Part shown: one piece after another, positions 6,370 through 23,525 of the stretch
Position numbering within the stretch: position 1 is the first letter of the stretch
How the letters are laid out: the number at the start of each line of letters is the position of its first letter
Assembly (NCBI RefSeq): GCF_017912555.1
Contig: NZ_JAERSD010000033.1
Span: forward strand, 5,445-29,444
DNA length: 24,000 nt
Direction of reading: 5' to 3'
Source: Bacillus sp. REN3
GTDB lineage: Bacteria; Bacillota; Bacilli; Bacillales; Cytobacillaceae
The notes under the pieces: model-generated
The model's database searches: none
What the model saw: the letters and a program-made list of their open reading frames with translations, nothing else
What the model was told of the DNA's origin: nothing
Program-made: the position numbers and the translations under genes

Positions 6370-6512
6370 ATGCCTAATACCGTTCCCATTTTTGGAAAGG
6401 GTCGGAAAAGGAATCCAGGTACAATTGCCCTATAAAACAATTTACCGATCAAGTAAGGAGGACTTAATCGGCTTTCAATTTTAAATTTTTTTTAAAAAAA
6501 GGGGAGAGAATA

Positions 6513-7616
6513 ATGGGTTTCTTAGCAGGTGTAGGTTTCTTAGGATTCATAGTTTTTATTGTCATGGGAGTTGTTTCACTTTTTAAAAGGAATGGAAGAG
6601 CGAAGAAGAATTTCGGGATAGCTGCAGGCCTCTTTGTTCTATTTATTATTGGCGCAGTCAATTCAGATTCTGAAGAAGTGTCGACGGAACCTCAAACAAA
6701 AGAGGAAGTATCTAAGGACGATCAGGAAGAAGAGCCTAAGGAAGAAAAGAAGCAAAAAGAGGAGAAAGCCGAAGAGAAAAAGGCTCCGTCCACATTAGCG
6801 GATGTATTGACGGTTGTTAAAAAAGATATGTCTGATCAAGATTTTAAGAAAGCAAAAAAAGACAAATTGAATGTGGAACAGCCTAAAAGCATATCGGTTG
6901 GGAATGGGAATGTTGGCTATGTCCTTCAGGCAACGGATGGGATTGTAGTAGCGAGTACGGATGGCAAGAAGATTTCCGATGTTGTCCAATTCAAGACAAT
7001 GGATGAAGTTGATAAATTTGAAAAAGAGAGCGTTGCTAAGGCTGAAGCGAAAAAGAAAGAAGAGGCCAAAAAAGAACGAGAGGCTTCTAAAATTGCTATG
7101 AGCGGAAGAGGCGATACAGCTTCTGATGGTTTGAAACTAAAGGCGGGCTGGGCTATTTTTGAAGGTTCTCATAATGGAGGAGCGAACTTCATTGTCCAGC
7201 TTCAGGATCCAAATGGAAATGACATTGAATTGCTGGTCAATACGATTGGCGGTTATAAGGGCAAAACTTTCGCCCAGATTCCAGCGGATGGAGAGTACTT
7301 TTTAAATATCAAGGCAGATGGTGCCTGGAATTTCAGTATTTATCAATCGCCGCCAGTTGATGTGGCAGATGCACCTGTAACGCTTCAAGGGAATGGTGAT
7401 GATGTTGTTTTCTTCAATGCAAAAAGCGGAACCTACAAGTTTACTTTTACGCATCAGGGCCAGGCGAATTTCATCGTCATGTTAAATGGTGAAGGTTTAA
7501 TGGTGAATGAAATTGGTCCTTATAATGGCTCCGCACGGCAAAATCTTGGCACTGATGGTTACTATGGTTTGGTGATCAGGGCTGATGGGGCTTGGAGTGC
7601 TAAGGTGGAGGAATAG
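6513..7616 (+). CDS. membrane-anchored protein with K/E-rich spacer and two tandem copies of an uncharacterised beta-type domain
   Basis: RBS aaaggggagag. N-terminal hydrophobic segments, then a low-complexity EEEPKEEKKQKEEKAEEKK region. Two C-terminal repeats share G.ANFIV.L, N.IG.Y.G and DG.Y...I.ADGAW. Confidence 0.7.
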   Translation: MGFLAGVGFLGFIVFIVMGVVSLFKRNGRAKKNFGIAAGLFVLFIIGAVNSDSEEVSTEPQTKEEVSKDDQEEEPKEEKKQKEEKAEEKKAPSTLADVLTVVKKDMSDQDFKKAKKDKLNVEQPKSISVGNGNVGYVLQATDGIVVASTDGKKISDVVQFKTMDEVDKFEKESVAKAEAKKKEEAKKEREASKIAMSGRGDTASDGLKLKAGWAIFEGSHNGGANFIVQLQDPNGNDIELLVNTIGGYKGKTFAQIPADGEYFLNIKADGAWNFSIYQSPPVDVADAPVTLQGNGDDVVFFNAKSGTYKFTFTHQGQANFIVMLNGEGLMVNEIGPYNGSARQNLGTDGYYGLVIRADGAWSAKVEE

Positions 7617-7750
7617 GCAGCTTTGGGTTGTTCGGCGATTTCGGGTGAAAACGAGCAATAATACTTTGGCAGCAATGTGTTATGGAGTAACTTAAGGGTA
7701 TCATCCGGAAATTGTTAAATAGACTATTATAAGCAAAGGGGGAGTTCAGA

Positions 7751-8074
7751 ATGGATGCTTTCTTGAAAGTTATGATTGGCATTTTGTTATTGGCCGGGAT
7801 GATTTTTATTTTTCAGGGATATGACAAGCTTACTAATTACTCAAACCCTAACCCTGATGAAGAGTTGTTTGCTGATGATGAGGATATGGTGAATGCCTAT
7901 GTTGGGGGAGACGCCTATAATTACATCATCAATGCTGAAAGAGCTACTGGAATGTTCGTTTTAGCAGGATTTTCGTTTGTGTTAGCTGTAGGGTCAGGCA
8001 TCCTTTTGCAAATGCGCTTGAATACTTCCAAGAATCTAAACGTTAAGGGAAGCGATTTTTCTATAGAGGGTTGA
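7751..8074 (+). CDS. small membrane protein (2 TM), unknown function
   Basis: RBS agggggag. Hydrophobic segments VMIGILLLAGMIFIF and MFVLAGFSFVLAVGSGILL. Confidence 0.6.
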   Translation: MDAFLKVMIGILLLAGMIFIFQGYDKLTNYSNPNPDEELFADDEDMVNAYVGGDAYNYIINAERATGMFVLAGFSFVLAVGSGILLQMRLNTSKNLNVKGSDFSIEG

Positions 8075-8109
8075 TTTTTTAAGGCCAAAGCGGAAGCGGA
8101 TAAGATGTA

Positions 8110-8138
8110 GCACTTGCAATGATTGCAGGTGCTTTTTT
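8110..8138 (+). terminator. rho-independent terminator
   Basis: gcacttgca-atgat-tgcaggtgc (one G-U pair) followed by tttttt. Confidence 0.7.
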
Positions 8139-8339
8139 AGTACCATCCCCTTTTTGGGTAAAGGTTGGATGGAAATATGTAGTAAAATGAATTATGTAAT
8201 TCACATTAACCTGCACCATAGAATCTGTCAATCTCACTGGCAATCCCTCAGTACAAATGTCACATTACCCCCAACACCATTCAACATGACAATTACATTC
8301 CATTAGAGGCCAAGGAAAAATTCTTTGAGGAGGAACGAA

Positions 8340-9188
8340 ATGCAAAAAGAGGCAGTTATTAATGGACATTATAGGTATTCTTTGAAACGTGTATGGGATA
8401 CTGCAAATCCTAAAAAAGCTGTTTTTATCATGCTGAATCCTAGCACGGCTGATTGTACAAGTGATGACCGCACGACAAATCGATGTATTTCGTTTGCGAA
8501 GAATTGGGAATGTGGTTCCCTTGAAATCGTGAATATTTTCGCGCTCCAATCAACCGATTATAAGAAATTAAAAGAGAAAACTAAAGAAGAAGCGATTGGA
8601 CCAGAAAACAGACAGTATATTAAAAGGGCCTTGGCAGACGCAGCTGTAACTGTTGCTGCCTGGGGTGAAAATGTGAAGATCCATTTTAAAAAGAGCGCTG
8701 CTGAAGAATTGAAGGAGCTATTTTCAGGCCATGAACTCATGTGTTTAGGAATAACGAAAGATGGTTTTCCCAGACATCCTTTATTCGTTGAATCACATAA
8801 GGAATTGGAGCCGTATTCTTTTGAAAAAGCATCCAAAAGAAGATTAAACGAAAAGGGATTGCCTTATCTTGATGGAAAATTGCTGAACCTTATTTTTGAT
8901 TTGGTGTATGAACAGTCGGACTTGAAAGGTGCTCGTAATCTTCCAAAAGATGAAAAGCTTATTTACTTTTTAAAAGCCTTAAAAAACCTGCAAGAATACA
9001 ACTATCGATGTCGCTTTGAACAAACCAGTGAGCTTTTCCCTTTATTCGAAGAAACGATTGGACCGTTCGAAATGAATTCAGAGGGTACAACTCTTTGGTT
9101 GGCGCTTGGGCTTGCACTTAAAGAGCTATATGGTTTCAGGAATCATACGCTCAGAAGCTTGCTAAAGCAAGTGAATATCAGGAAGTAA
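8340..9188 (+). CDS. DUF1643-domain protein with C-terminal extension
   Basis: RBS GAGGAGGA, then the ATG at 8340 (MQKEAVING). RYSLKRVWDT...AVFIMLNPSTAD...DDRTTNRCISFAK...NIFALQST is the DUF1643 pattern as I remember it. About 120 extra C-terminal residues are unassigned. Confidence 0.7.
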   Translation: MQKEAVINGHYRYSLKRVWDTANPKKAVFIMLNPSTADCTSDDRTTNRCISFAKNWECGSLEIVNIFALQSTDYKKLKEKTKEEAIGPENRQYIKRALADAAVTVAAWGENVKIHFKKSAAEELKELFSGHELMCLGITKDGFPRHPLFVESHKELEPYSFEKASKRRLNEKGLPYLDGKLLNLIFDLVYEQSDLKGARNLPKDEKLIYFLKALKNLQEYNYRCRFEQTSELFPLFEETIGPFEMNSEGTTLWLALGLALKELYGFRNHTLRSLLKQVNIRK

Positions 9189-9206
9189 TGATGAGGAGGG
9201 ACATAG

Positions 9207-9512
9207 ATGGAAAGAGAGTACAAAGCTATTAAGAGTTACGAGGCGGATGGTTATGAGATTAATATTCATGTTGCTAATCTGGACCCCTTGCTCGAGAATG
9301 ACGAGGTAATGAGAGAAATCGCCCTGCTCGCTGCCCAGGAAGGGTATTTGAGATTCGTGGGTGCAATCGATCCATCAAGTTACAGAGAAGATTGGACCTT
9401 TATTTTCTCAAAGGAAGGATATTTTGATAATGATGATATGCTTGTTCGGCACAAAGAAGCCGAAGCAAAAATCACGCCGATTTTAGAGGAAGTTAAGAGA
9501 AATTCTAAATAG
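9207..9512 (+). CDS. hypothetical protein (101 aa)
   Basis: RBS GAGGAGGG 6 nt upstream, 18 nt after the previous stop. I recognise no motif. Confidence 0.55.
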   Translation: MEREYKAIKSYEADGYEINIHVANLDPLLENDEVMREIALLAAQEGYLRFVGAIDPSSYREDWTFIFSKEGYFDNDDMLVRHKEAEAKITPILEEVKRNSK

Positions 9513-9526
9513 GGGTGATGCAGCGC

Positions 9527-9611
9527 GTGAGCATGGGGACGGTTCTCGTGGCAACCTCATTTTTTCACGCGGATTGTGGGAAACATGTGGTGACCACGAG
9601 AACAGTCCCTT
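9527..9611 (+). repeat. ~80-bp palindromic intergenic repeat, copy D
   Basis: gtgagcATGGGGACGGTTCTCgtggcaacc...ggtgaccacGAGAACAGTCCCtttt. Confidence 0.8.
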
Positions 9612-9680: not shown

Positions 9681-10391
9681 ATGAAGTTAATTACCTGGAA
9701 TGCTTCAATGCGATTTAGAGATAAAATTGAAAATTTACTCCCTTCCACTGCTGATCTATTAGTCATCCCTGAATGTGAAGCTCTTAAAAAATGGAAAGCA
9801 AACAAACATCTTCAAGAAATTAATCAATTTCTCTGGTTCGGTGAAAATCTGAATAAGGGAATTGGAATACTGACTTTTAATGATGCCTTTCATATTAAAT
9901 TACACCCATCTTATAATAAGGAATTTCGTTATATTATTCCTCTAATAGTTACCGGGAAGCAAAATTTCATTCTGATTGCAGTTTGGTCTCAACTTTCAAA
10001 AAGCAAATTTTATAGTTATATAGGTCAAATTTATTTGGCTTTGAAGTATTATGAGGCATTATTGAAAGAACCATGTATTATTGCAGGTGACTGGAACAGT
10101 AATAAAATATTCGACAATATTAAACGGGTGGGTAATCATTCAATAGTTGTTGATATTTTGGAAAAAGTGTCGATCAGAAGTGCCTATCATAAGTCGTTTA
10201 ATGAGGAACACGGACTTGAAACCTGGCCAACGCATTATTTTAGAAAGGAAAAAGCAAGACCTTTTCATATCGATTTTATATTTGCATCCGACTCGATTCT
10301 GAAACAGATGAGCAAGTTCGAGATAGGCTCATATGAAGATTGGATTAAATATAGTGATCACATGCCGATTATCATGGAGCTTAATAAATAA
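9681..10391 (+). CDS. endonuclease/exonuclease/phosphatase (EEP) family protein
   Basis: MKLITWNASMRF (N-terminal TWN motif), LLVIPECE, IAGDWNSN and YSDHMPIIMEL give the conserved E / D-x-N / S-D-H catalytic pattern of the EEP fold. I prefer the start at 9681 after agaggag. Confidence 0.75.
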   Translation: MKLITWNASMRFRDKIENLLPSTADLLVIPECEALKKWKANKHLQEINQFLWFGENLNKGIGILTFNDAFHIKLHPSYNKEFRYIIPLIVTGKQNFILIAVWSQLSKSKFYSYIGQIYLALKYYEALLKEPCIIAGDWNSNKIFDNIKRVGNHSIVVDILEKVSIRSAYHKSFNEEHGLETWPTHYFRKEKARPFHIDFIFASDSILKQMSKFEIGSYEDWIKYSDHMPIIMELNK

Positions 10392-10399
10392 ATTGTGTT

Positions 10400-10484
10400 C
10401 CATGGGGACGGTTCTGCTGGCAACCTTCATGTTGCGGTTGGGTAAGGGTAACTGATGTGGGTTGTCACAAGAACCGTCCCTATG
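10400..10484 (+). repeat. ~80-bp palindromic intergenic repeat, copy E
   Basis: ccATGGGGACGGTTCTgctggcaacc...ggttgtcacaAGAACCGTCCCtatg. It starts a ~690-bp segment colinear with 1026-1716. Confidence 0.85.
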
Positions 10485-10612
10485 AAAGCCCCTTATTTTT
10501 CATTTTTTAAGTCTTTTATCCTATTAAAAATAAAGAGGTTTATTTGGATATTTGTGGAATTATATAACGGTTGTGTCTAGGTATGCAGGAGTGGTTATCA
10601 ATAGACTTAAGA

Positions 10613-10726
10613 ATGCTTCTTTTGACGATTTTCAGTCTGCTGTTATTGAGGAGCCATCCAGATGGTATATTTTATATAGTGTTGGTGTTTTTAGGAAGAT
10701 GGGATAAATATGAAGAAAAAGCATAG
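10613..10726 (+). CDS. possible 37-aa hydrophobic peptide, paralogue of 1237-1356
   Basis: ATG-started MLLLTIFSLLLLRSHPDGIFYIVLVFLGRWDKYEEKA. It stays intact although the neighbouring 87-aa paralogue has decayed. Confidence 0.3.
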   Translation: MLLLTIFSLLLLRSHPDGIFYIVLVFLGRWDKYEEKA

Positions 10727-10973
10727 AAATAACCAAACAGATTTTAAACTTGCTAAGTATTATTATGTTGTTTTTCGTTTTTTTCGGTTGTATAGTTTCT
10801 AGTTACATAGTAGTTGAATCGGTACTTCAATAATTGCAAGTTTAGAGGAGGATAGGATATTTGGTGTATTAATCTTTGCACCACTATCCATATTGTTCGC
10901 CTATTTAGCATTCAAAATGGCAAGTCAGAGATACCAAGCATTAAAGGCAAAAAACGTACAGGAATTACAATAA
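10710..10973 (+). pseudogene. decayed paralogue of the 87-aa membrane protein gene
   Basis: The T-run is 7 nt here versus 6 in copy 1 (cgtttttttcgg vs cgttttttcggg), which shifts the frame. There are also a TAA (caa taa ttg vs caa ata ttt) and small indels. The tail IFGVLIFAPLSILFAYLAFKMA is still recognisable. Confidence 0.7.
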
Positions 10974-10993
10974 AGGTATAGTATAGCGGTGAC

Positions 10994-11074
10994 CAGAGGG
11001 ACTGTTCTCCTGACAACCTTGCAATTGCGGTTGGCTAAAGGAAACTGACGGTTGTCACGAGAACCGTCCCCATG
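10994..11074 (+). repeat. ~80-bp palindromic intergenic repeat, copy F (leader of SseB-like gene)
   Basis: cagaGGGACTGTTCTCctgacaacc...ggttgtcacGAGAACCGTCCCCatg. It ends 25 nt before the ATG at 11099. Confidence 0.85.
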
Positions 11075-11098
11075 AAAACCTAGGAGTGGTTATGATTT

Positions 11099-11833
11099 AT
11101 GAGTGTTTCTTTTGATGAGCTTTTGGCTGCGGCTATTGAGGGGCCTTCTGGTCGTTTTCTTTTTTATAGGGCGTTGGTGGAGCTTGAACTTTTCGTGATT
11201 GGTTCGGTGGAGGATGATGAGTCTTTGAACTTGAAGTACATCGAGGAGGATGGGGAGCTGGTGCTGCCTGTTTTTACGAGCCGGGATAAGTTCGATGAGA
11301 TTTTTGAGTCAGAGTATCCATATGTAAGGATTCCTGCGGCGATGCTGCTGGAGATGGCAGGGACGGCCATTCCATGGCTGGTGAATCCTTTTACCGGGTT
11401 AAGCAAGAAAATCATCCGGGAGGAGCTTGAAACCTTGAAGGATGGCCGGATACTGAACTATTTTTTCGAACAGCTTCGGGATGATGAGAAGGAGAAGATC
11501 CTGACTGAGCAAATGGAAGAACTGCCTGAAGAGGCAATGGATGTGCTTCGTACATGTCTCAGGAATTTCCCTACTGTTAAAAAAGCCTACCTGGTGAACT
11601 TGTTTGATCCTGTGGTTGCTGATCCGGCTTTTCCGTTGCTGGCAGTGGAGGTGGAAGCTGTGGAAGAAGGTCTGGTCGGTGAACTTTTCGGCGCTATCAA
11701 TCATCAGGCAGAGCTGCAGATCGAAGTCATGATTCTCGACGAGGGGTTCCCGCTGGCCAGATCCATTGTCGAGCACACCAGGCCATTTTATTTTCGTGAG
11801 TCGGTTGATGAGTTAAGGACCTTGTTTGATTAG
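11099..11833 (+). CDS. SseB-family protein (244 aa), toxin-associated, copy 2
   Basis: Colinear with 1717-2451. By hand count there are about 27 substitutions in 244 residues and no indels. Confidence 0.85.
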   Translation: MSVSFDELLAAAIEGPSGRFLFYRALVELELFVIGSVEDDESLNLKYIEEDGELVLPVFTSRDKFDEIFESEYPYVRIPAAMLLEMAGTAIPWLVNPFTGLSKKIIREELETLKDGRILNYFFEQLRDDEKEKILTEQMEELPEEAMDVLRTCLRNFPTVKKAYLVNLFDPVVADPAFPLLAVEVEAVEEGLVGELFGAINHQAELQIEVMILDEGFPLARSIVEHTRPFYFRESVDELRTLFD

Positions 11834-11844
11834 GAGGTCGACGG

Positions 11845-13194
11845 GTGTCAAAGATTGATATTAAAATAAATCAAGTCAAGGCGGCGAACAGGGATTTAGT
11901 CAATCTGTCATCTCGCGTGGAGAATGAGGAGAACCGGATTTCTTCCCTTAGGGGGCAGGTTGATGGCAGGATCGCCAGCCGCCGGAACATCGGAAGGAAC
12001 TTGAGTGAGGCAGCGGCAAAGGCGAGGACAATTGAAAAGAAGCTGGGTAAACTCCATCAATTCATTGATGCATCGATGGATTTGTATATGAAGGCGGATA
12101 AGAAGGCGGACCGATTCCGGGAGCCAGAAAAGAAATCGATCTGGGAGAAGTTCGCAGACGGTTTTAAGACAGCGAATGATATAAGGAAAGGATTCCGCAA
12201 GGGAGTGGCAGAGGCCCTTTTTTCAACCGTTGAAGGTATTTGGAATGCCGTCACCCATCCGGTCAAAACCGCCAAAGGAATCGTCTATGCAATCGGCTAT
12301 CCTCTGGAAACCGCCAAAAGTATTTGGAACTCCATCTCAGACTCCTGGAAGAACGATGTTATAAACGGCGATGCCAAAAGCCGTTCTGAATGGTTCGGCC
12401 GAGCCGTCGGTGAAGCCGCCCTTGCGATTATCGGGACCAAAGGCGTCGACAAGGCTGTAAAGGTGGCCAAAGGGGCCAGGGTTGTGAAGGAGGGTGGAGG
12501 AGTTAGGGTTGTTAGGCCGGAGACTATTGAGAAGAAGGATGGCGGGGATAGGGATGGAAAACGTGTGGCTCCTGAGAGGAAATACAGCGGAGATAGGGTG
12601 GAAAAGCGGGAGATTCCTCGGATCATAGACGGGAATGGCGGAATTGGGGATAATGGGAGGAATGATACGGGTAATGGTATAGACAATGGTAATAAGGAAA
12701 CCAGCCAGCCAAGGACAGCAGAGCAAATAATATCAGATAGAACTAAGGGATTGGATTTAAACCCACATCCTATTCAGCAAAAACAATTGAGTGCTAAAAA
12801 GATGAAAGACCTGAGAGTGAAAATAGAGAATAGGACTATTACAAAAGCTGAGTATGAACAATATATATGGAATAAAAAATTTGTTAAACATAGGGCTTCA
12901 GGTGTAACCGATTTCTGGTATCAAGAACGTCAAAGAATATTAAATAACGAAACTCCAACCAGAGACTGGAATCAAGAACAATTAAATGATATTTTGAATG
13001 GTAAGAAACCTAAAGTAGATGGAGAAATAGTACAGGGGCACCATTCCTACAGTGCTTCACAATATCCGCACTTAGCGAATAAAGGGGAAATTATATATCC
13101 AGCTACACCAAACGAGCATTTCAAAGGTTGGCATGGAGGTAATTGGAAAAATAGTCTGCCAGGTAAACCAATTAATCCTATTGATGATTTCTAA
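11845..13194 (+). CDS. polymorphic toxin: conserved N-terminal 270 codons + HNH/EndoVII-type nuclease CT with GHH signature
   Basis: Same taGGAGGtcgacggGTG junction as copy 1. After G-D-N (12646-12654) the unique AT-rich CT ends ...VQGHHSYSASQYPHLANKGEIIYPATPNEHFKGWHGG, giving G-H-H ... N ... E-H as in HNH/EndoVII toxin domains. Confidence 0.8.
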   Translation: MSKIDIKINQVKAANRDLVNLSSRVENEENRISSLRGQVDGRIASRRNIGRNLSEAAAKARTIEKKLGKLHQFIDASMDLYMKADKKADRFREPEKKSIWEKFADGFKTANDIRKGFRKGVAEALFSTVEGIWNAVTHPVKTAKGIVYAIGYPLETAKSIWNSISDSWKNDVINGDAKSRSEWFGRAVGEAALAIIGTKGVDKAVKVAKGARVVKEGGGVRVVRPETIEKKDGGDRDGKRVAPERKYSGDRVEKREIPRIIDGNGGIGDNGRNDTGNGIDNGNKETSQPRTAEQIISDRTKGLDLNPHPIQQKQLSAKKMKDLRVKIENRTITKAEYEQYIWNKKFVKHRASGVTDFWYQERQRILNNETPTRDWNQEQLNDILNGKKPKVDGEIVQGHHSYSASQYPHLANKGEIIYPATPNEHFKGWHGGNWKNSLPGKPINPIDDF

Positions 13195-13215
13195 TTCATG
13201 GAGGGAGACATTCAA

Positions 13216-13545
13216 ATGGCTAAAATGAATATACAAATAGAAAAAGATACTAATGAGGTCAAGTACATTTCTATTTTAAGAAAAAATACTAATAAGAGTA
13301 TATCTGAATTAAAAGCGTTACTAAATAATAATGATTTCGTCTTATCGTATAATCTCTTAGAAATTGATGAATTGTTGGAAATGAAAAAAATAGTAAGTTT
13401 ATTATTAGGGGCTGGTGCTGAAGTCCACATATTTGAAGAGAATAGAGAGGTTAGCATTGAGTTCTTAGATAATCTTATAGAATCTCATTTAGATACAGAA
13501 AGGTATCTGGAAGAAGTTGATGAGCAAATGTTTAATGAGGATTAA
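13216..13545 (+). CDS. cognate immunity protein candidate for the GHH nuclease toxin
   Basis: Immediately downstream of the toxin. GGAGGGAG RBS before the ATG at 13216 (MAKMNIQ). Small, acidic and AT-rich like the CT module. Confidence 0.65.
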   Translation: MAKMNIQIEKDTNEVKYISILRKNTNKSISELKALLNNNDFVLSYNLLEIDELLEMKKIVSLLLGAGAEVHIFEENREVSIEFLDNLIESHLDTERYLEEVDEQMFNED

Positions 13546-13599
13546 TACAGCTATTTTGGTATATTCGAGGACAAAAAAATGGATTAGAGTGAAAGTTAC

Positions 13600-14016
13600 A
13601 TGGCAGTAGGATTATTAGTAGATTGTTTTTATTATGAATTAGGTCATAGCGATTTTGTACATTCTTTTTTTTCAACAATATCCTATCATTTAGAAAAAGA
13701 AGGCTGGGGTACAAAATACCCTTTATTGATGAATGGATTGTATAATGACCAACTAGACTGGAATGATGTTCCTGTTGTAAAAGCTAATTTAATTAAAATT
13801 GAACAGGAATTATCAAATTACTCGCCGGAACAAGTTATATGGGATATTGATGACTTATCACAAGTACCACCGTGGGGAGATAAAATAAGCCCAAAAGTAA
13901 CTAGTCTAGCAAATTATTTTGCAACATCTGATGGGAAAACATTTTTTGAAGTACTACGTACAGCAATTGAGGTAGCAGAAGAAGATAAATGTGATTTAAA
14001 AATTCACAAACTATAA
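13600..14016 (+). CDS. orphan immunity protein, paralogue of 3686-4102
   Basis: Clear paralogy to the locus-1 immunity protein (GHSDFVHSFFSTISYHLEKEGWGTKYP...PEQVIWDIDDLSQVPPWGDKIS), but no matching PD-(D/E)xK toxin module lies upstream in this locus. Confidence 0.7.
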   Translation: MAVGLLVDCFYYELGHSDFVHSFFSTISYHLEKEGWGTKYPLLMNGLYNDQLDWNDVPVVKANLIKIEQELSNYSPEQVIWDIDDLSQVPPWGDKISPKVTSLANYFATSDGKTFFEVLRTAIEVAEEDKCDLKIHKL

Positions 14017-14023
14017 TCTTTCT

Positions 14024-14056
14024 AAACCATGGGACACTATCCCATGGTTTTTTTTG
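14024..14056 (+). terminator. rho-independent terminator
   Basis: aaaccatggga-cacta-tcccatggttt followed by tttttt. Confidence 0.8.
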
Positions 14057-14059
14057 CGA

Positions 14060-14701
14060 ATGAGTACTATTGAGAAGAAGGATGGCGGGGGCAGGGATGG
14101 GAAACCTGTGGCGCCTGAGAGGAGAAATAGCGGAAAAGGTGTTGGAACAAGGGAGGTTCCTCAGAGGATAGACGGGGATGGCGGAATTGGGGATAATGGT
14201 GGTAAGAGTACGGTTAAAGTGTACCCTACAAGACAAATAGATCCTATAAAAGAAATCCATATAATTGATAGGGTGAAAGAGCTTAGAGGAAACTTAACTG
14301 CTGGATACAAAAAGTCAGGAAATTTTGCTATAGCAGAGGTATACGTCAAGGGGTTGAGGAAAGAATTTTATGCTCAGAGTAGTATAAATGATTTAAACGG
14401 TACTTTAGAAGAACGTGTTCCGGATATTTCATTAAAACCTATCAACCCAACATTTAAAGCTTCATATGCAGCAGATAAAAATGGAATTGAATATTTAAGA
14501 GACAGTGATACAGAATACAAAATTCTAAACGATATTGCTCATAGTCTTGGACATAATACTGAAGCTACAGGTAAGATAAAGCTGTTTACAGAATTAGATA
14601 CTTGTAATAGTTGTAGTAAAGTCATAGCGGAATTTTCTGTGAAATTCAAAAACATTGAGTTAGAAGTTGTCCATAATGATGGAAAAAGAATTAAACCTTA
14701 G
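14060..14701 (+). CDS. orphan toxin C-terminal module (linker handle + deaminase-fold-like domain), probably not independently translated
   Basis: It begins inside the terminator T-run with no RBS. From about 14065 the first ~45 codons (TIEKKDGGGRDGKPVAPERRNSGKGVGTREVPQRIDGDGGIGDN) are homologous to the linker of the full-length toxins, up to the G-D-N junction (14189-14197). The unique CT contains DSDTEYKILNDIA ... IKLFTELDTCNSCSKVI, a [HCD]xE ... CxxC spacing typical of the cytidine-deaminase fold. Confidence 0.55.
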   Translation: MSTIEKKDGGGRDGKPVAPERRNSGKGVGTREVPQRIDGDGGIGDNGGKSTVKVYPTRQIDPIKEIHIIDRVKELRGNLTAGYKKSGNFAIAEVYVKGLRKEFYAQSSINDLNGTLEERVPDISLKPINPTFKASYAADKNGIEYLRDSDTEYKILNDIAHSLGHNTEATGKIKLFTELDTCNSCSKVIAEFSVKFKNIELEVVHNDGKRIKP

Positions 14702-14721
14702 CTTTATAGGAGAGGGTATAT

Positions 14722-15093
14722 ATGGAAGAATGGGAATACAATGAATTGCTTGAAAGTGTTAATGATGTATACCTTGATTTGTTGAATGAAAAAAGAGGAT
14801 ATAAATACGCTATTGCCAGGACATTTTATGAATTTGAAACTGTATGCAATGAAGGGGAAACAGAAAACCTATTAGTTCATTTAGCTATAGGAGAGATTGT
14901 ATTAGCACATCCAAAAGTCTTTGTAGGGGTAGTTGACTCTATTAAAAAAGCACTGGGGCACACCAATATAGAACATTTGGAGAATGAATTGGCACCTGAA
15001 GAGATTGAGGATCTTTTTACAAGAAAAAATAATGTTATTAATGGAATTAATAAAGTAGAGATAGATTATGATCCCAATGCAGATAATTATTAA
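14722..15093 (+). CDS. immunity protein candidate for the orphan deaminase-like module
   Basis: RBS taggagaggg. Starts 20 nt after the orphan CT stop. Small and acidic. Confidence 0.6.
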   Translation: MEEWEYNELLESVNDVYLDLLNEKRGYKYAIARTFYEFETVCNEGETENLLVHLAIGEIVLAHPKVFVGVVDSIKKALGHTNIEHLENELAPEEIEDLFTRKNNVINGINKVEIDYDPNADNY

Positions 15094-15188: not shown

Positions 15189-15200
15189 AATTTTAGATCA

Positions 15201-15286
15201 GTGAGCATGGGGACGTTTATCGTGGCAACCTCGCTTTTAGCCGTGATTAAGGGAAACTACGGGTGAGCACAAGAACCGTCCCCGTG
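15201..15286 (+). repeat. ~80-bp palindromic intergenic repeat, copy G
   Basis: gtgagcATGGGGACGTTTATCgtggcaacc...gtgagcacaAGAACCGTCCCCgtg. Confidence 0.8.
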
Positions 15287-15385
15287 AAAACTCACGTGAA
15301 AACCTCTCAAATAAAAACAAGTGAATAAATACCATATATAACCATTTTTATGATAAAATAACAACATCCTTAATAATGGAGGAAT

Positions 15386-17137: not shown

Positions 17138-17194
17138 CCTTGCTGTGCGGTTGACTAAAGGGAACTGCTGGTTGTCACGAGAACCGTCCCCATG
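17138..17194 (+). repeat. palindromic intergenic repeat, copy H, left arm missing (leader of SseB-like gene)
   Basis: ...ccttgctgtgcggttgactaaagggaactgctggttgtcacGAGAACCGTCCCCatg. The centre and right arm are present, with no GGGGACGGTTCTC on the left. Confidence 0.75.
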
Positions 17195-17229
17195 AAAACT
17201 CATGAAAATCCAGGGAGTGGTTATATTTT

Positions 17230-17964
17230 ATGAGTGTTTCTTTTGATGAGCTTTTGGCTGCGGCTGTTGAGGGGCCTTCTGGTCGTTTTCTTTTTTATAG
17301 GGCGTTGGTGGAGCTTGAGTTGTTCGTCATTGGTTCGGTGGCGGATGATGAAACTTTGAGCTTGAGGTACATCGAGGAGGATGGGGAGCTTGTGCTGCCT
17401 GTTTTTACGAGCCGGGAGAAGTTCGATGAGATTTTCAAGTCTGAGTATCCATATGTAAGGATTCAGGCGGAATTGCTGTTGGAGATGGCAGGAACGGACA
17501 TTCCATGGCTGGTGAATCCTTTTACAGGGTTAAGCAAGAAAATCATCCGGGAGGAGCTTGAAACCTTGAAGGATGGCCGGATCCTGAACTATTTTTTCGA
17601 ACAGCTTAGTGACGAGGAGAAAGAACGGATCCTGACTGAGCTAATGGAAGAACTGCCTGAAGAGGCAATGGATGTACTGCGAACATGTCTCAAGCAGTTC
17701 CCTACTGTTAAAAAAGCCTACCTGGTAAACCTGTTTGATCCTACGGCGGCTGATGAGGCGTTCCCGCTGCTGGCAGTGGAGGTGGAAGCTGTGGAAGAAG
17801 GTCTGGTCGGAGAACTTTTTAACGCTATCAATCATCATGCAGAGCCGCAGGTCGAAGTCATGATTCTCGACGAGTCGTTCCCGCTGGCAACCTCCATTGT
17901 CGGGCACACCAGGCCATTTTATTTCCGTGAATCGGTTGATGAGTTAAGGACAATGTTTGATTAG
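17230..17964 (+). CDS. SseB-family protein (244 aa), toxin-associated, copy 3
   Basis: Colinear with copies 1 and 2, with no indels. Confidence 0.85.
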   Translation: MSVSFDELLAAAVEGPSGRFLFYRALVELELFVIGSVADDETLSLRYIEEDGELVLPVFTSREKFDEIFKSEYPYVRIQAELLLEMAGTDIPWLVNPFTGLSKKIIREELETLKDGRILNYFFEQLSDEEKERILTELMEELPEEAMDVLRTCLKQFPTVKKAYLVNLFDPTAADEAFPLLAVEVEAVEEGLVGELFNAINHHAEPQVEVMILDESFPLATSIVGHTRPFYFRESVDELRTMFD

Positions 17965-17975
17965 GAGGTCGACGG

Positions 17976-19175
17976 GTGTCAAAGATTGAGGTTAAAATAA
18001 ATCAGGTCAAGGCGGCGAACAGGGATTTAGTCAATCTATCCTCTCGAGTGGAGAATGAGGAGAACCGGATTTCTTCCCTTAGGGGGCAGGTTGATGGCCG
18101 GATCGCCAGCCGCCGGAACATCGGAAGGAACTTGAGTGAGGCAGCTGCAAAGGCGAGGGCAATTGAAAAGAAGCTGGGTAAACTCCATCAATTCGTTGAT
18201 GCCTCGATGGATTTGTATGTGAAGGCCGATTAGAAGGCGGACCGATTCCGGGAGCCGGATAAGAAATCGATCTGGGAGAAGATCACAGACGGTTTTAAGA
18301 CTGCGAATGATATAAGGAAGGGATTCAGGAAGGGAGTGGCAGAGGCCTTTTTTTCAACCGTTGAAGGTATTTGGAATGCCGTCACCCATCCGGTCAAAAC
18401 CGCCAAAGGAATCGTCTATGCAATCGGCTATCCTCTGGAAACCGCCAAAAGTATTTGGAACTCCATCTCAGACTCCTGGAAGAACGATGTTATAAACGGC
18501 GATGCCAAAAGCCGTTCTGAATGGTTCGGCCGAGCCGTCGGTGAAGCCGCCCTTGCGATTATCGGGACCAAAGGCGTCGACAAGGCTGTAAAGGTGGCCA
18601 AAGGGGCCAGGGTTGTGAAGGAGGGTGGAGGAGTTAGGGTTGTTAGGCCGGAGACTATTGAGAAGAAGGATGGCGGGGATAGGGATGGAAAACGTGTGGC
18701 TCCTGAGAGGAAATACAGCGGAGATAGGGTGGAAAAGCGGGAGATTCCTCGGATCATAGACGGGAATGGCGGAATTGGGGATAATATCAATAAGGGTCCG
18801 GGTAATGATGTACCTCCTTATGGAAGAAAGTCAGTCCCTATAGGGCCTTACCGTGAAGTAAATGGTTATCCAGTAAAAGTGAAACCAGGTGCTCAGGAGA
18901 AACATATTCCAAATACTCCGAATTACAAACAAGAGATAGCGAGTGGGAAAAACAAAAGTATCATCTATGGCGATAATAAAACAACACAAGAATTGCTTGA
19001 TAAGTTTGCAGGAAATGGAACCACTGTTACCAAAAATAAAGAGAGAGTGGACTTTGGTGAACCAATAGGTAAATACTATGATACTGTGACTGGACAATAT
19101 ATAGAGACTAGTAGAGGAATGATACACTATGGAAAAGATGGTGCTCATATAGTACCAGCAAAACCATCAGAATAA
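17976..19175 (+). pseudogene. polymorphic toxin interrupted by one in-frame TAG; conserved N-terminal part + Ntox50-like (YobL/YxiD-CT-type?) C-terminal module
   Basis: Track ORFs 17976-18233 and 18336-19175 are in the same frame. The only lesion is TAG at 18231-18233 where copies 1 and 2 have AAG (gcggatAAGaaggcgg vs gccgatTAGaaggcgg). The CT after G-D-N (18777-18785) reads QEKHIPNTPNYKQ...LLDKFAGNG...KERVDFGEPIGKYYD...[17 protein letters not shown], which resembles the 'polymorphic toxin type 50' pattern I remember. Confidence 0.8.
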
Positions 19176-19194
19176 AATAAGAAAGAGGATGTTT

Positions 19195-19533
19195 ATGGAA
19201 GCAGATTCTTTATTTAAAACATTATTAGAGTATGAAGGTGTAGAAATCATATTAGAGTGGAACAGTGGATTAAGAATTGTAGGAAAAACAGACACATTTT
19301 TTGAGACAGACAATGGATTAGATGATGATGATCCCGAGTACGCAGAGTATTATGCAACTGCATTTCAAGTAAATCATATTTTATCCCATCCTTCTACTAA
19401 CGAAGGTAGTGTATATGATTGGTTGAAACAAGAAAAAAGTTCATTGGTTGAAATTTCTCTCTATGACGACCCACCAAGTTCCGTATTATTAACTGACGGA
19501 AAGAGAGTATGGGATAGGGAAATACCTAAATAA
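19195..19533 (+). CDS. cognate immunity protein candidate for the Ntox50-like toxin
   Basis: Immediately downstream of the toxin. I prefer the start at the second ATG (19195), 6 nt after aagaaagagg. Small and acidic. Confidence 0.65.
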
Positions 19534-21079: not shown

Positions 21080-21265
21080 GACCGATTCCGGGAGCCGGAA
21101 AAGAAATCGATTTGGGAGAAAATCGCAGACGGTTTTAAGACAGCGAATGATATGAGGAAAGGATTCCGGAAGGGAGTTGCAGAGGCTCTTTTTTCAACAG
21201 TTGAAGGTATTTGGAACACCGTAACCCATCCGGTCAAAACGGCCAAAGGGATTGTCTATGCCATC
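21080..21265 (+). pseudogene. internal fragment of a PT-TG toxin gene (about codons 89-152) fused to the RHS fragment
   Basis: DRFREPEKKSIWEKIADGFKTANDMRKGFRKGVAEALFSTVEGIWNTVTHPVKTAKGIVYAI. The nucleotide sequence is colinear with 2728-2913, 12110-12295 and 18241-18426. Confidence 0.8.
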
Positions 21266-21985
21266 CTGTCCATCAGGACATAGACCTGTTCCTCATCAGA
21301 GGCAGGAAACGTCTGAATCATTTCTATGGCCAGGTCGTTCTTGCTTTTGAAAGATCGATGATGTTCTTTGCAGTATTCCTGCCTGAAATACGTTCGGAAA
21401 TCCCATGCGAAGGAATAACCTTCATCTACCAAATGGGTTGTCACCAGGCAGTGCGACCAGACACTTTTCCCTTCAGAATGGGAGAAGTGGAAATCCAATG
21501 CCTCCATCTTTCGTGTTGAGTTATCCTTATGGCACCCGGTGTCATCGACGATCAGGAAAATAATCGGCCTGTCGTCACCCTGTTTATGCCGAGCCCGACG
21601 AATGGAATTCATCAGGTGATTCATTCTTTTGGACTGTACACGCTTGGCACACCATGGGGATTCCTTCAGGAAACGTGTCAAACAGCTAAGGTCACGGTCT
21701 TTCCCGGAATGGTTCCGTATCTGCGTCATCGTTTTTCTGCCTGCGGTCAGGATGATGCCATGCATGATGGTAATCAAGTGATTAAGCTGGGGCTTGGATA
21801 AGCATAGACCAAGAGTGACAATGAACTTGACGATAGCAGAATGGATAGTTACCATAACCTTAGACATCTCCTTTTTTCTGGAATTTGGATTGGGTGGTAC
21901 CTTCCATTTCCCACGATTAAAGGGATGTCATTCTTGTTTTTATGAAGTTTTCAAGGTTAGACAAAACTAGACAATGTTTACGACA
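21266..21985 (-). mobile_element. truncated IS (IS701/IS4-superfamily DDE transposase, N-terminal ~200 codons only)
   Basis: Minus-strand ORF 21256-21867: MSKVMVTIHSAIVKFIVTLGLCLSKPQLNHL...LSCLTRFLKESPW...IIFLIVDDTGCHK...SKNDLAIEMI...QVYVLMD. The L.RFL..S.W, DDT and SK..LA blocks are typical of IS701-like DDE transposases as I remember them. The reading frame ends at the junction with the toxin fragment. The outer end (about 21985) is estimated only. Confidence 0.6.
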
Positions 21986-23525
21986 AGATTTTTGCAAGAC
22001 TCAAGTTACTTATACTTATGACCCAAACGGAAATGTTTCAAGTAGCACCTTAGCTTCCGGTACATCCTTAATTGTCACTAATTATAAGTATGATAAAAAT
22101 AATCAACTTACGAATATTTCGGGTGGGAATAGCTCTACAAATTTTACTTATTCTGAAAATGATAAAGTAGTTGGAATTAATAATAAAAATGGAACCAATA
22201 CATTCTTAAACCATGACGGTGCTGGCCAGTTAACAAGTGTGATTACACAAGATGCTAATGGTAGCTTGATTAGTTCCTATGATTATACTTTTAATGAAAA
22301 GGGGAATATTATAAAAGAAAAAGCAAAAGAAGGAACGAAACAATTTTTTTATGACAAAAAGGAACAATTAACTAAAGAAGTGTTGCAAAATGGTGACATC
22401 TATGAATATTCTTATGATGCGGCAGGTAATCGAATTAGTAAAAAGACAATTAAGGGAACAGACGTATCTTCAATAAATTATACCTACGACGCAGCTAATC
22501 AACTGGTTTCCATAAATGGAAATGCAACGATGCATGATAATAATGGGAATCTTTCCGGTGATGAAAAAAAAACCTATATTTATGATGCTGAAGATAGATT
22601 GATTGAGGTAAAAGAGGGAACCGTTTCACTTTCTAAGTATGAATATAATTCAGCTGGTCTGAGGATAAGTAAAACTACAGGTTCAACAACTATTTATTAT
22701 AGTTATGACGAGAATAATAATGTGGTTTTAGAAACGGATAAAACAGGGACAATATTAGCTTCTTATATTTATGACAAGGAGAATAAGCCGGTAACTATGT
22801 CCCAAGGTGGAAAAACATTTACTTTCCACGCAAATGGCCATGGTGATATAACAAAAGTAACAGACCAAACAGGTACAATAGTTGCGTCATTCGAGTATGA
22901 TTCTTGGGGAAACATTCTTAATGAAAGTGGTATAGCTGCTGCGGATATCCCATTCCGTTATGCTGGTTATCGTTACGATGCTGAAACAAAATTGTACTAT
23001 TTACAACAAAGATATTACAATCCTGAGATAGGTAGGTTTATAACTACTGATCCGGTTTTAGGTGCAAAAGAATTACCTATTAGTCAAAACGGCTATGCTT
23101 ATGCAGATAATAACCCTGTAATGAATGTAGATCCTAACGGGATGTTTTCTGTCCCTAAAAAGTTAAAATCAGCACTAAGATACTTTATTACAAAAATCTT
23201 TGATGATTTTATTGAAAATACCCTCACAAACGCCGTAATGATAATTGGTGGTGGAGGTATTGGAGCATGGACAGCTAGGAAATTGGCAATGAAGGGATTT
23301 ACGATGTTGAGGCGCTCCCCAAATAAAAAGGCAATTATAGGTTTTGTCACAGGGGGGATAACATCATATATCGCAGGAAATTGGTTCTCTAAAGCTGCAT
23401 CTATTGCGCAATATTGGACTTCTAAACTATGGAAGTATGAAAATTGGTTTGATAGGAACTGGCTTGGAAAAAAGATAGATAACGGTTTGCGCAGAGCAAA
23501 AAATTATCTGCTTAGAAGAATCTAA
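21942..23525 (+). CDS. RHS-repeat toxin, 5'-truncated; YD repeats + RHS core end (DPNGM) + glycine-rich hydrophobic C-terminal toxin module
   Basis: YD repeats run from about 21990 (VTYTYDPNGN...). The core terminus reads YYLQQRYYNPEIGRFITTDPV...YAYADNNPVMNVDPNGM (DPNGM at 23130-23144). A 126-aa CT follows, with AVMIIGGGGIGAWTA and AIIGFVTGGITSYIAGNWF. The first ~15 codons of the track ORF derive from the IS end or junction. Confidence 0.7.
   Translation: MKFSRLDKTRQCLRQDFCKTQVTYTYDPNGNVSSSTLASGTSLIVTNYKYDKNNQLTNISGGNSSTNFTYSENDKVVGINNKNGTNTFLNHDGAGQLTSVITQDANGSLISSYDYTFNEKGNIIKEKAKEGTKQFFYDKKEQLTKEVLQNGDIYEYSYDAAGNRISKKTIKGTDVSSINYTYDAANQLVSINGNATMHDNNGNLSGDEKKTYIYDAEDRLIEVKEGTVSLSKYEYNSAGLRISKTTGSTTIYYSYDENNNVVLETDKTGTILASYIYDKENKPVTMSQGGKTFTFHANGHGDITKVTDQTGTIVASFEYDSWGNILNESGIAAADIPFRYAGYRYDAETKLYYLQQRYYNPEIGRFITTDPVLGAKELPISQNGYAYADNNPVMNVDPNGMFSVPKKLKSALRYFITKIFDDFIENTLTNAVMIIGGGGIGAWTARKLAMKGFTMLRRSPNKKAIIGFVTGGITSYIAGNWFSKAASIAQYWTSKLWKYENWFDRNWLGKKIDNGLRRAKNYLLRRI

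Follow-up and report, generated by a model that had tools for sequence, protein, structure and literature searches.

Palindromic doublets in a Bacillus polymorphic-toxin locus as probable REPIN-like repeats of a Y1-transposase system

Y1 transposases and their palindromic repeats

The REP, BIME and REPIN sequences of Proteobacteria are described as short imperfect intergenic palindromes that mostly occur as inverted doublets and can form a long hairpin. Their partner RAYT (TnpA-REP) is encoded by a single-copy Y1 gene flanked by the same repeats, and the repeat sequence is specific to the lineage. Escherichia coli TnpA-REP has a specific nuclease activity on its own REPs, as cited in PMC6006769. 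IS200/IS605 elements and their short palindrome-bearing derivatives combine a Y1 HUH domain with hairpin-forming ends, leave no target-site duplication and are expected to show a strand bias from their single-strand mechanism (PMC6006769).

In a second set of RAYT-like genes, the inverted repeats on either side share the consensus GGGG[AT][CG]A[CG] (GGGGWSAS), and the names TIRYTs and TIRtrons were introduced for this arrangement (Di Nocera, De Gregorio and Rocco 2013; PMC3733652). Such repeats also occur elsewhere in the genome, where they are moderately abundant and form dimers or clusters. Most TIRYTs fall into TnpA-Y1 subclass 2.1, which is characterised by NHVH, FQ and Y[IV]HLNP motifs, a length of ~238 aa and an HTH-like C-terminal tail, and in which the authors found no REP-like sequences (Quentin et al. 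2018; PMC6006769). RAYT Group 1 is the largest RAYT group, present in 21 classes including Clostridia, and its flanking 16-mers are repeated ~12 times per replicon (Bertels et al. 2017; PMC5581495). The papers cited here describe no cutting or movement of DNA by a subclass 2.1 enzyme.

We analysed a 24,000-nt stretch of the Bacillus sp. REN3 genome (the window), in which a repeat search and an alignment of eight sites identified an ~85-bp imperfect palindrome, present in seven complete copies and one copy reduced to its right-hand part. These copies are probably REPIN-like non-autonomous repeats of a Y1-transposase system that are passengers in a toxin locus. Each consists of two short palindromic units inverted around a spacer in an intergenic region, which is the REPIN layout, and the resemblance to the REP/BIME/REPIN and RAYT systems extends to the long hairpin, the lineage-specific sequence and, in other genomes, a single-copy Y1 gene with the repeats on both sides.

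There are also differences from these systems. Canonical REPs have GT[AG]G at the hairpin foot, whereas the element described here lacks it; neither the alignment of the eight copies nor a context logo revealed conserved GTAG or CTAC at the element ends. The conserved block here is instead 12 nt long, lies between complementary flanks and is the same across phyla. The Y1 HUH domain, the hairpin-forming ends and the lack of target-site duplication recall IS200/IS605 and its derivatives (PMC6006769). Unlike IS200/IS605, the transposase gene associated with our repeats is single-copy and syntenic, and its ends are arrays of a repeated unit.

Eight palindromic copies among toxin cassettes

The host of the window is a relative of Mesobacillus. 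Pfam searches identified three SseB + toxin + immunity modules in the window, with Tox-GHH, Ntox50 and deaminase toxin domains and Imm70, YezG-like and Imm3 immunity domains. Further genes encode WYL-WCX, DUF1643, EEP-family and RHS proteins. All window genes are on the + strand, GC skew is positive and the palindrome copies, likewise all on the + strand, are co-directional with the genes.

Full copies contain a core in two inverted orientations (F and R). Copy c1 (1023–1114), with F core GGGACGGTTCT at 1033–1043 and R core AGAACCGTCAC at 1094–1104, lies 5′ of a conserved block and the small ORF of cassette 1. Copy c2 (1599–1692; F core 1609–1619, R core 1671–1681) begins 2 nt past the stop of an 87-aa ORF (1334–1597) and ends 25 nt before the SseB start at 1717. 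Copy c3 (5080–5166) is a full doublet of a subfamily with the inner stem GGCAACC.../...GGTGnnCAC; it is located past a YezG-like immunity gene and two terminator-like hairpins, ahead of the WYL-WCX gene. Copy c4 (9526–9611; full, R core AGAACAGTCCC) lies between the EEP gene and a 101-aa ORF that is itself 3′ of the DUF1643 gene.

Copy c5 (10398–10487), a full doublet and paralogue of c1, directly follows the EEP gene stop at 10391. Copy c6 (10988–11081; F core GGGACTGTTCT, R core 11060–11070), the one to which the first-pass annotation was attached, is a full doublet and c2 paralogue that ends 17 nt before the SseB start at 11099. Copy c7 (15200–15288), which follows the Imm3 gene, is likewise full; its F core (GGGACGTTTAT) has decayed and its R core is at 15272–15282. 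Copy c8 (17138–17203; R core 17180–17190) has only the centre and right arm, the left arm being absent. Copies c2, c6 and c8 end 17–27 nt before SseB start codons. All eight palindromes of the first-pass annotation are thus present, at or a few bases from where it had placed them, and the alignment and gene map bear out its statement that the asymmetric centre is oriented alike in every copy and that every copy is intergenic.

The 11-nt core AGAACCGTCCC, allowing at most one mismatch, has 14 matches in the window on the two strands together. Dinucleotide-preserving shuffles of the window (n=100) gave an expectation of 0.22 ± 0.48, and 14 matches were reached in 0 of 100. Every full copy is predicted to fold into one extended hairpin; the energies lie between -33 and -48 kcal/mol, and the z-scores against shuffles between -2.4 and -6.2. 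The outer ends of the element are GTGAGCAT... and ...ATGAAAACC, and the host flank pair is GTGAGCAT / GGTTGTCAC. Stem mismatches in the window copies comprise 13 G·U and 14 A·C, which indicates no strand bias. Inspection of the alignment revealed no direct repeats or target-site duplication flanking the eight copies. There is no Y1 transposase homologue within the 24-kb window, and a promoter and terminator scan gave nothing informative on the elements.

Copies c1 and c5 are paralogues, as are c2, c6 and c8 (repeat families D1, D6, D11 and D12; 84–93% identity). Both sets arose by segmental duplication of the cassette 5′ region, and the three SseB-proximal copies are one site that was duplicated along with the cassette. 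The window therefore contains at most five independent sites, on which the co-orientation of the copies rests.

Orthologous loci provide a view of this region with the element missing. In two Mesobacillus loci that share the EEP / SseB / toxin arrangement, SseB is preceded by a terminator, a conserved block and a ribosome-binding site, and the palindromic element is absent from that position in both. The regions past c1 and c5 in the window (1166–1320 and 10542–10700) contain the block shared with Mesobacillus (TTGGATATTTGTGGAATTATATA), then the SseB ribosome-binding site and, further 3′, a degenerate duplicate of the initial ~100 nt of SseB whose ATG is now ATC; the functional-looking SseB start ~490 bp downstream is therefore the second of two. 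The conserved block is thus ~490 bp 5′ of SseB. Neither c2 nor c6 opens the transcript. The first-pass annotation had assigned three copies to a 5′ leader, but c2 and c6 are intercistronic, between the 87-aa ORF and SseB.

The 87-aa ORF (paralogue at ~10710–10975) has two hydrophobic segments or helices and no Pfam match. It sits between the decayed SseB fragment and c2 and is missing from the Mesobacillus loci, where a 148–149-aa ORF is found upstream.

A dispersed repeat family and its probable Y1 partner gene

We scanned one genome per species for GGGACGGTTCT followed, after a gap of 35–65 nt, by AGAACCGTCCC. The core GGGGACGGTTCT / AGAACCGTCCCC was identified as an inverted doublet at 120 or more genome loci (at least) in more than ten phyla, with ~2 matches expected in random sequence by our own estimate. 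The phyla include Bacillota (Clostridia and Bacilli), Actinomycetota, Bacteroidota, Omnitrophota, Atribacterota, Spirochaetota, Planctomycetota, Acidobacteriota, Myxococcota and Proteobacteria, and isolates among the loci include Neobacillus, Litchfieldia, Aquibacillus, Butyrivibrio and Micropruina glycogenica. A scan of viral contigs yielded four matches only. Phage-like contigs (L124, 232–4317; L121; L122) carry at least six co-oriented copies between structural and lysis genes, some of them with an extra R unit.

Several observations indicate a genuine family rather than a chance sampling of hairpins. First, the base before the core, which is outside the fixed search pattern, is G in 76% of cases and C in 1%. 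Second, 30% of 427 cores are enclosed by an uninterrupted Watson-Crick stem of 6 bp or more, compared with 1.2% of controls, and the flanking sequences are diverse (339 distinct 8-mers). Third, the doublets have a strict polarity: 153 pairs are F-then-R and 5 are R-then-F (27 versus 3 among non-seed pairs). Finally, the flanks on the two sides of the core (S and S′) are constant from copy to copy within one genome and differ between genomes or lineages. Since only ~30% of cores have a clean stem, display of the core in a hairpin loop would be a tendency and not a rule.

Single S-core-S′ units also exist, as do tandem arrays with a period of roughly 20–23 nt. The UBA3678 genome has core sites in three loci (L008, L080 and L103). 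An all-against-all BLAST of ORFs from 120 loci identified no recurrent neighbour gene, as would be expected of dispersed repeats, and copies outside the toxin locus adjoin unrelated genes, including ordinary housekeeping genes. The first-pass annotation had weighed a repeat family scattered over many sites with no bias towards the cassettes against a role specific to them; across other genomes, such a distribution is what we found.

Omnitrophota-type copies (L032, L057, L065, L073, L098 and L101) have outer arms TAGGGACGGTTCTCA... and a short inner hairpin GTCCCC...GGGGAC(A), a design that reads as two half-elements back to back. BLAST of plasmids with the element gave no match, and a 1.8-kb query matched the EEP gene only. 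Metagenomes scanned with the host-specific arm gave one match, which was unrelated, and the literature on the 10–12-mers returned only unrelated primer and eukaryotic matches. By sequence inspection, the spacing or palindromic layout also misfits a sigma-54 promoter, an ECF promoter, a SinR box, an rRNA boxA, a tRNA T-arm or tmRNA-like structure, a group II intron domain V and a hammerhead core.

We recognised a candidate partner gene from F-only and R-only arrays ~1.1 kb apart in locus L008, where six tandem F cores and four R cores bracket a 258-aa ORF. This ORF matches the Pfam Y1_Tnp family (E 2.5e-16). Among NCBIfam models, the one for REP-associated tyrosine transposases scores highest, with 69.8 bits, which is below its cut-off of 80; the IS200 model reaches only 16.5 bits. 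A tblastn search with approximate IS200 TnpA and E. coli YafM sequences detected a single IS200 copy but not the true partner, which is too divergent.

Related genes have similar surroundings. A homologue that is 65% identical (P0035, in L143/L144) has four F cores upstream and three R cores downstream. An isolate of Acetoanaerobium noterae (L140; tblastn match H23) has two F cores and one R core around the gene, with the exact core sequence. Two further homologues are flanked by variant cores, GGGACCGGTTCT for P0078 (L129–L138) and GGGACAGTCCC for P0046 (L142). Inverted arrays thus flank the gene in L008, L143/L144, L140, L129–L138 and L142. Many S flanks are GGGGACAC or GGGGACAG. The gene with upstream arrays and inverted downstream arrays is present in four lineages, all Clostridia. 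We found no Bacillaceae example of this layout, and a search of cluster names returned no Bacillaceae homologue.

NHVH, FQ[DN]RF and RY[IV]xxNPxKA motifs are kept in the five proteins that we aligned (L008/P0033, P0035, P0046, P0078 and the A. noterae ORF; 256–262 aa), all from genomes other than the host. Pfam searches at E<=0.01 found no HTH domain in the C-terminal tail, and a PDB sequence search with the transposase gave no match at the same threshold. The Y1 family comprises 32,144 protein clusters at E<=0.001. Its gene is single-copy and syntenic, with the order yunB – gene – 2Fe-2S thioredoxin-like gene in ten loci. The gene also adjoins recD2 in L008 (2168–5801), L142 and L143, with the order uvrA – gene – recD2 in the latter two, so that a place beside DNA-repair genes is a conserved position. 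Many Y1 homologues are found on contigs of 900–1400 bp that barely exceed the gene length, as expected if flanking repeat arrays break short-read assemblies.

These genes and repeats closely resemble the TIRYTs and TIRtrons. Shared features are a Y1 HUH gene of ~240–260 aa whose product, in genomes other than the host, has the motifs NHVH, FQ and Y[IV]HxNP; inverted flanking repeats, apparently with the GGGG[AT][CG] start; a wide but patchy taxonomic spread that includes Clostridia; and repeats elsewhere in the genome as singles, dimers or clusters (10 sites in A. noterae, 3 loci in UBA3678 and 8 copies in the window). GGGGACGG agrees with the TIRYT consensus at 7/8 positions, and GGGGACGGTTCT runs 4 nt beyond the published 8-mer. 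The gene with its flanking repeats has the published REPtron or TIRtron layout, and the motifs of the partner protein fit RAYT Group 1 / TIRYT / TnpA-Y1 subclass 2.1. Our analysis adds to this known system a Bacillaceae family, a 12-nt core, an S-core-S′ rule and arrays; the TIRYT literature examined (PMC3733652 and PMC6006769) contains neither Firmicutes/Bacillaceae repeat families nor a 12-nt invariant core, an S-core-S′ rule or tandem arrays.

In A. noterae, a 200-kb sample contained 10 sites, all less than 25 kb from the transposase gene, whereas three other 50-kb samples contained 0. This distribution suggests local spread of the element around the gene. The doublets in this genome include ~60 nt from the 3′ end of the gene region and are therefore deletion derivatives of a gene-bearing unit. 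These sites are in L145 (NZ_CP154629.1, 400001–450000), on a 2.6-Mb replicon that is labelled as a plasmid and is almost unannotated.

The first-pass annotation had listed a MITE- or REP-like mobile palindrome among its readings and had envisaged a transposase whose ends carry the same arms. The Y1 (RAYT-like) gene bracketed by core arrays in other genomes corresponds to such a transposase and supports that reading. The annotation had also taken the conserved arms as a sign of a protein-recognised site; the core, invariant across phyla, and the arrays that flank the Y1 gene support recognition by a protein.

Proposed mechanism and alternative explanations

Each element consists of two inverted ~25-nt units around a short spacer, with each unit organised as S–GGGGACGGTTCT–S′. 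S and S′ are complementary, which allows a unit to fold back on itself with the invariant 12-nt core as the loop, and the whole element can also form one long hairpin. By analogy with E. coli TnpA-REP, the Y1 enzyme would recognise the core on single-stranded DNA, perhaps displayed in the S-core-S′ hairpin loop, and would cut and rejoin the DNA there. Such a reaction would copy or move doublets with a strand bias and without target-site duplication. A single-strand mechanism fits the lack of visible target-site duplication, the one strand orientation and the absence of G·U bias among the window copies. The host of the window would presumably encode such an enzyme as well.

Within the window, c2, c6 and c8 probably descend from one insertion between the small ORF and SseB that was duplicated together with the cassette, and c1 and c5 from one insertion further upstream. 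The repeats probably served later as homology for recombination at cassette edges. A stable hairpin 17–25 nt before a start codon and 2 nt past an upstream stop might influence the mRNA, an effect that would be a by-product of insertion.

Four other explanations were considered. According to the first, the core is an operator or iteron bound on double-stranded DNA by a protein, for example through the HTH tail of the Y1 protein, and serves regulation or chromosome organisation without spreading by transposition. The array period of roughly two helical turns would suit such a protein, as would the C-terminal region described as HTH-like in PMC6006769 and the clustering of A. noterae sites near the gene. 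This explanation is nevertheless unlikely. The A. noterae doublets carry a piece of the gene 3′ end, as deletion derivatives of a mobile unit would; related genomes have the element in different positions; conservation extends to the HUH and Tyr motifs required for catalysis; and the tail lacks a detectable Pfam HTH domain at the threshold given above.

A second explanation is a dedicated recombination site for toxin/immunity cassettes, comparable to attC or Xer-bound modules, on which a site-specific recombinase would act. The elements do bracket modules (c1|c2|c3|c4|c5|c6|c7|c8), and two cassette junctions fall in them. Cassettes 1 and 2 are homologous from the left arm of c1/c5 onwards. The left edge of c8 is fused directly to a terminator hairpin, and a homologous terminator precedes the SseB upstream block in the Mesobacillus loci; c8 therefore marks a recombination or deletion junction inside an element. 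These two junctions are the only ones in favour, however, and the right-hand limits of cassette homology lie inside toxin genes and not at elements. No recombinase or integrase gene is present in the window, and elsewhere the element is found between ordinary housekeeping genes.

Integron attC sites have outer core sites R″ (RYYYAAC) and R′ (GTTRRRY) and are associated with a linked integrase or a promoterless cassette array. Sequence inspection found neither RYYYAAC nor GTTRRRY at the outer ends of our elements. We regard a dedicated site as improbable. The cassette-shuffling site that the first-pass annotation had suggested is not borne out as a dedicated system; two between-cassette homology breakpoints are nonetheless located in elements, a pattern that fits passive recombination. 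Because these breakpoints fall in elements, the elements are probably passive substrates for recombination between dispersed repeats at cassette edges.

The third explanation is that selection maintains an RNA structure, in a leader or between cistrons, for the regulation or processing of SseB-toxin mRNA; the first-pass annotation had also proposed such a leader. Three copies end shortly before SseB start codons and c2 begins almost at the upstream stop, the hairpins are highly stable and the copies are co-directional with the genes. In addition, the element occupies the corresponding position in a relative from a soil metagenome with an 88% identical SseB, on a contig whose end falls inside the element.

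Against this, the three leader copies trace to one duplicated site, and the Mesobacillus loci have the same SseB-toxin layout without the element. The remaining copies adjoin WYL, DUF1643 and EEP genes, and the same core is found beside unrelated genes in more than ten phyla. The near-equal numbers of G·U and A·C mismatches argue against selection on + strand RNA. The whole window has no Rfam match at E<=1, and relaxing the threshold to E<=10 over 10380–11100 gave only weak, chance-level matches to microRNA and snoRNA models. A selected RNA element is thus a distinctly improbable account of these copies. The fourth explanation, a classical MITE derived from a DDE-transposase IS with terminal inverted repeats and target-site duplications, would match the inverted-repeat structure, small size, multiple copies and intergenic positions, but it is very unlikely given that no flanking direct repeats were seen around the window copies, that the most conserved block is the internal core and the palindrome tips are less conserved (context logo and alignment), and that the sole gene found bracketed by the repeats encodes a Y1 HUH transposase.

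Reading the window copies as REPIN-like passengers removes, for this locus, the tempting idea of a dedicated toxin-operon leader or cassette site. It also explains short-read assembly breaks at the locus, such as contig L128, which ends inside an element. More broadly, a common and uncharacterised Y1 class is tied to a concrete DNA partner with a defined 12-nt core and a predictable layout. This partner is a candidate substrate for biochemistry on an enzyme group in which one survey found no REP-like sequences, and the simple pattern allows annotators to mask such repeats in Bacillota and other phyla. We tentatively suggest that RAYT Group 1 / TIRYT / subclass 2.1 may have cognate REPIN-like hairpin doublets, with a 12-nt core invariant across more than ten phyla and co-varying stems, which in Bacillaceae may be clustered in polymorphic-toxin cassette arrays and supply their duplication junctions. 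The conservation of the core across phyla, together with its link to a group said to lack REP-like partners, makes this possibility worth following up.

The toxin locus itself has further features. The polymorphic-toxin array occupies 1717–4834, 11099–15093, 17230–19533 and 21942–23525. Its three SseB-like genes, of 244 aa each, are followed by toxin genes with a common N-terminal part and differing C-terminal domains (Tox-GHH, Ntox50), and immunity genes (Imm70, YezG-like and Imm3) lie 3′ of the toxins. An orphan deaminase toxin module and an RHS protein are also present. Between c3 and c4 (5260–9512), the window encodes the WYL-WCX regulator, 367-aa and 107-aa ORFs without a Pfam match, DUF1643 and the 101-aa ORF, and this segment could be a defence-island-like insert between toxin cassettes. 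Within the common N-terminal part of the toxin genes is a 42-nt tandem pair (2863–2942, 12245–12324, 18376–18455 and 21216–21253; family D10, seven copies) that is probably a peptide repeat.
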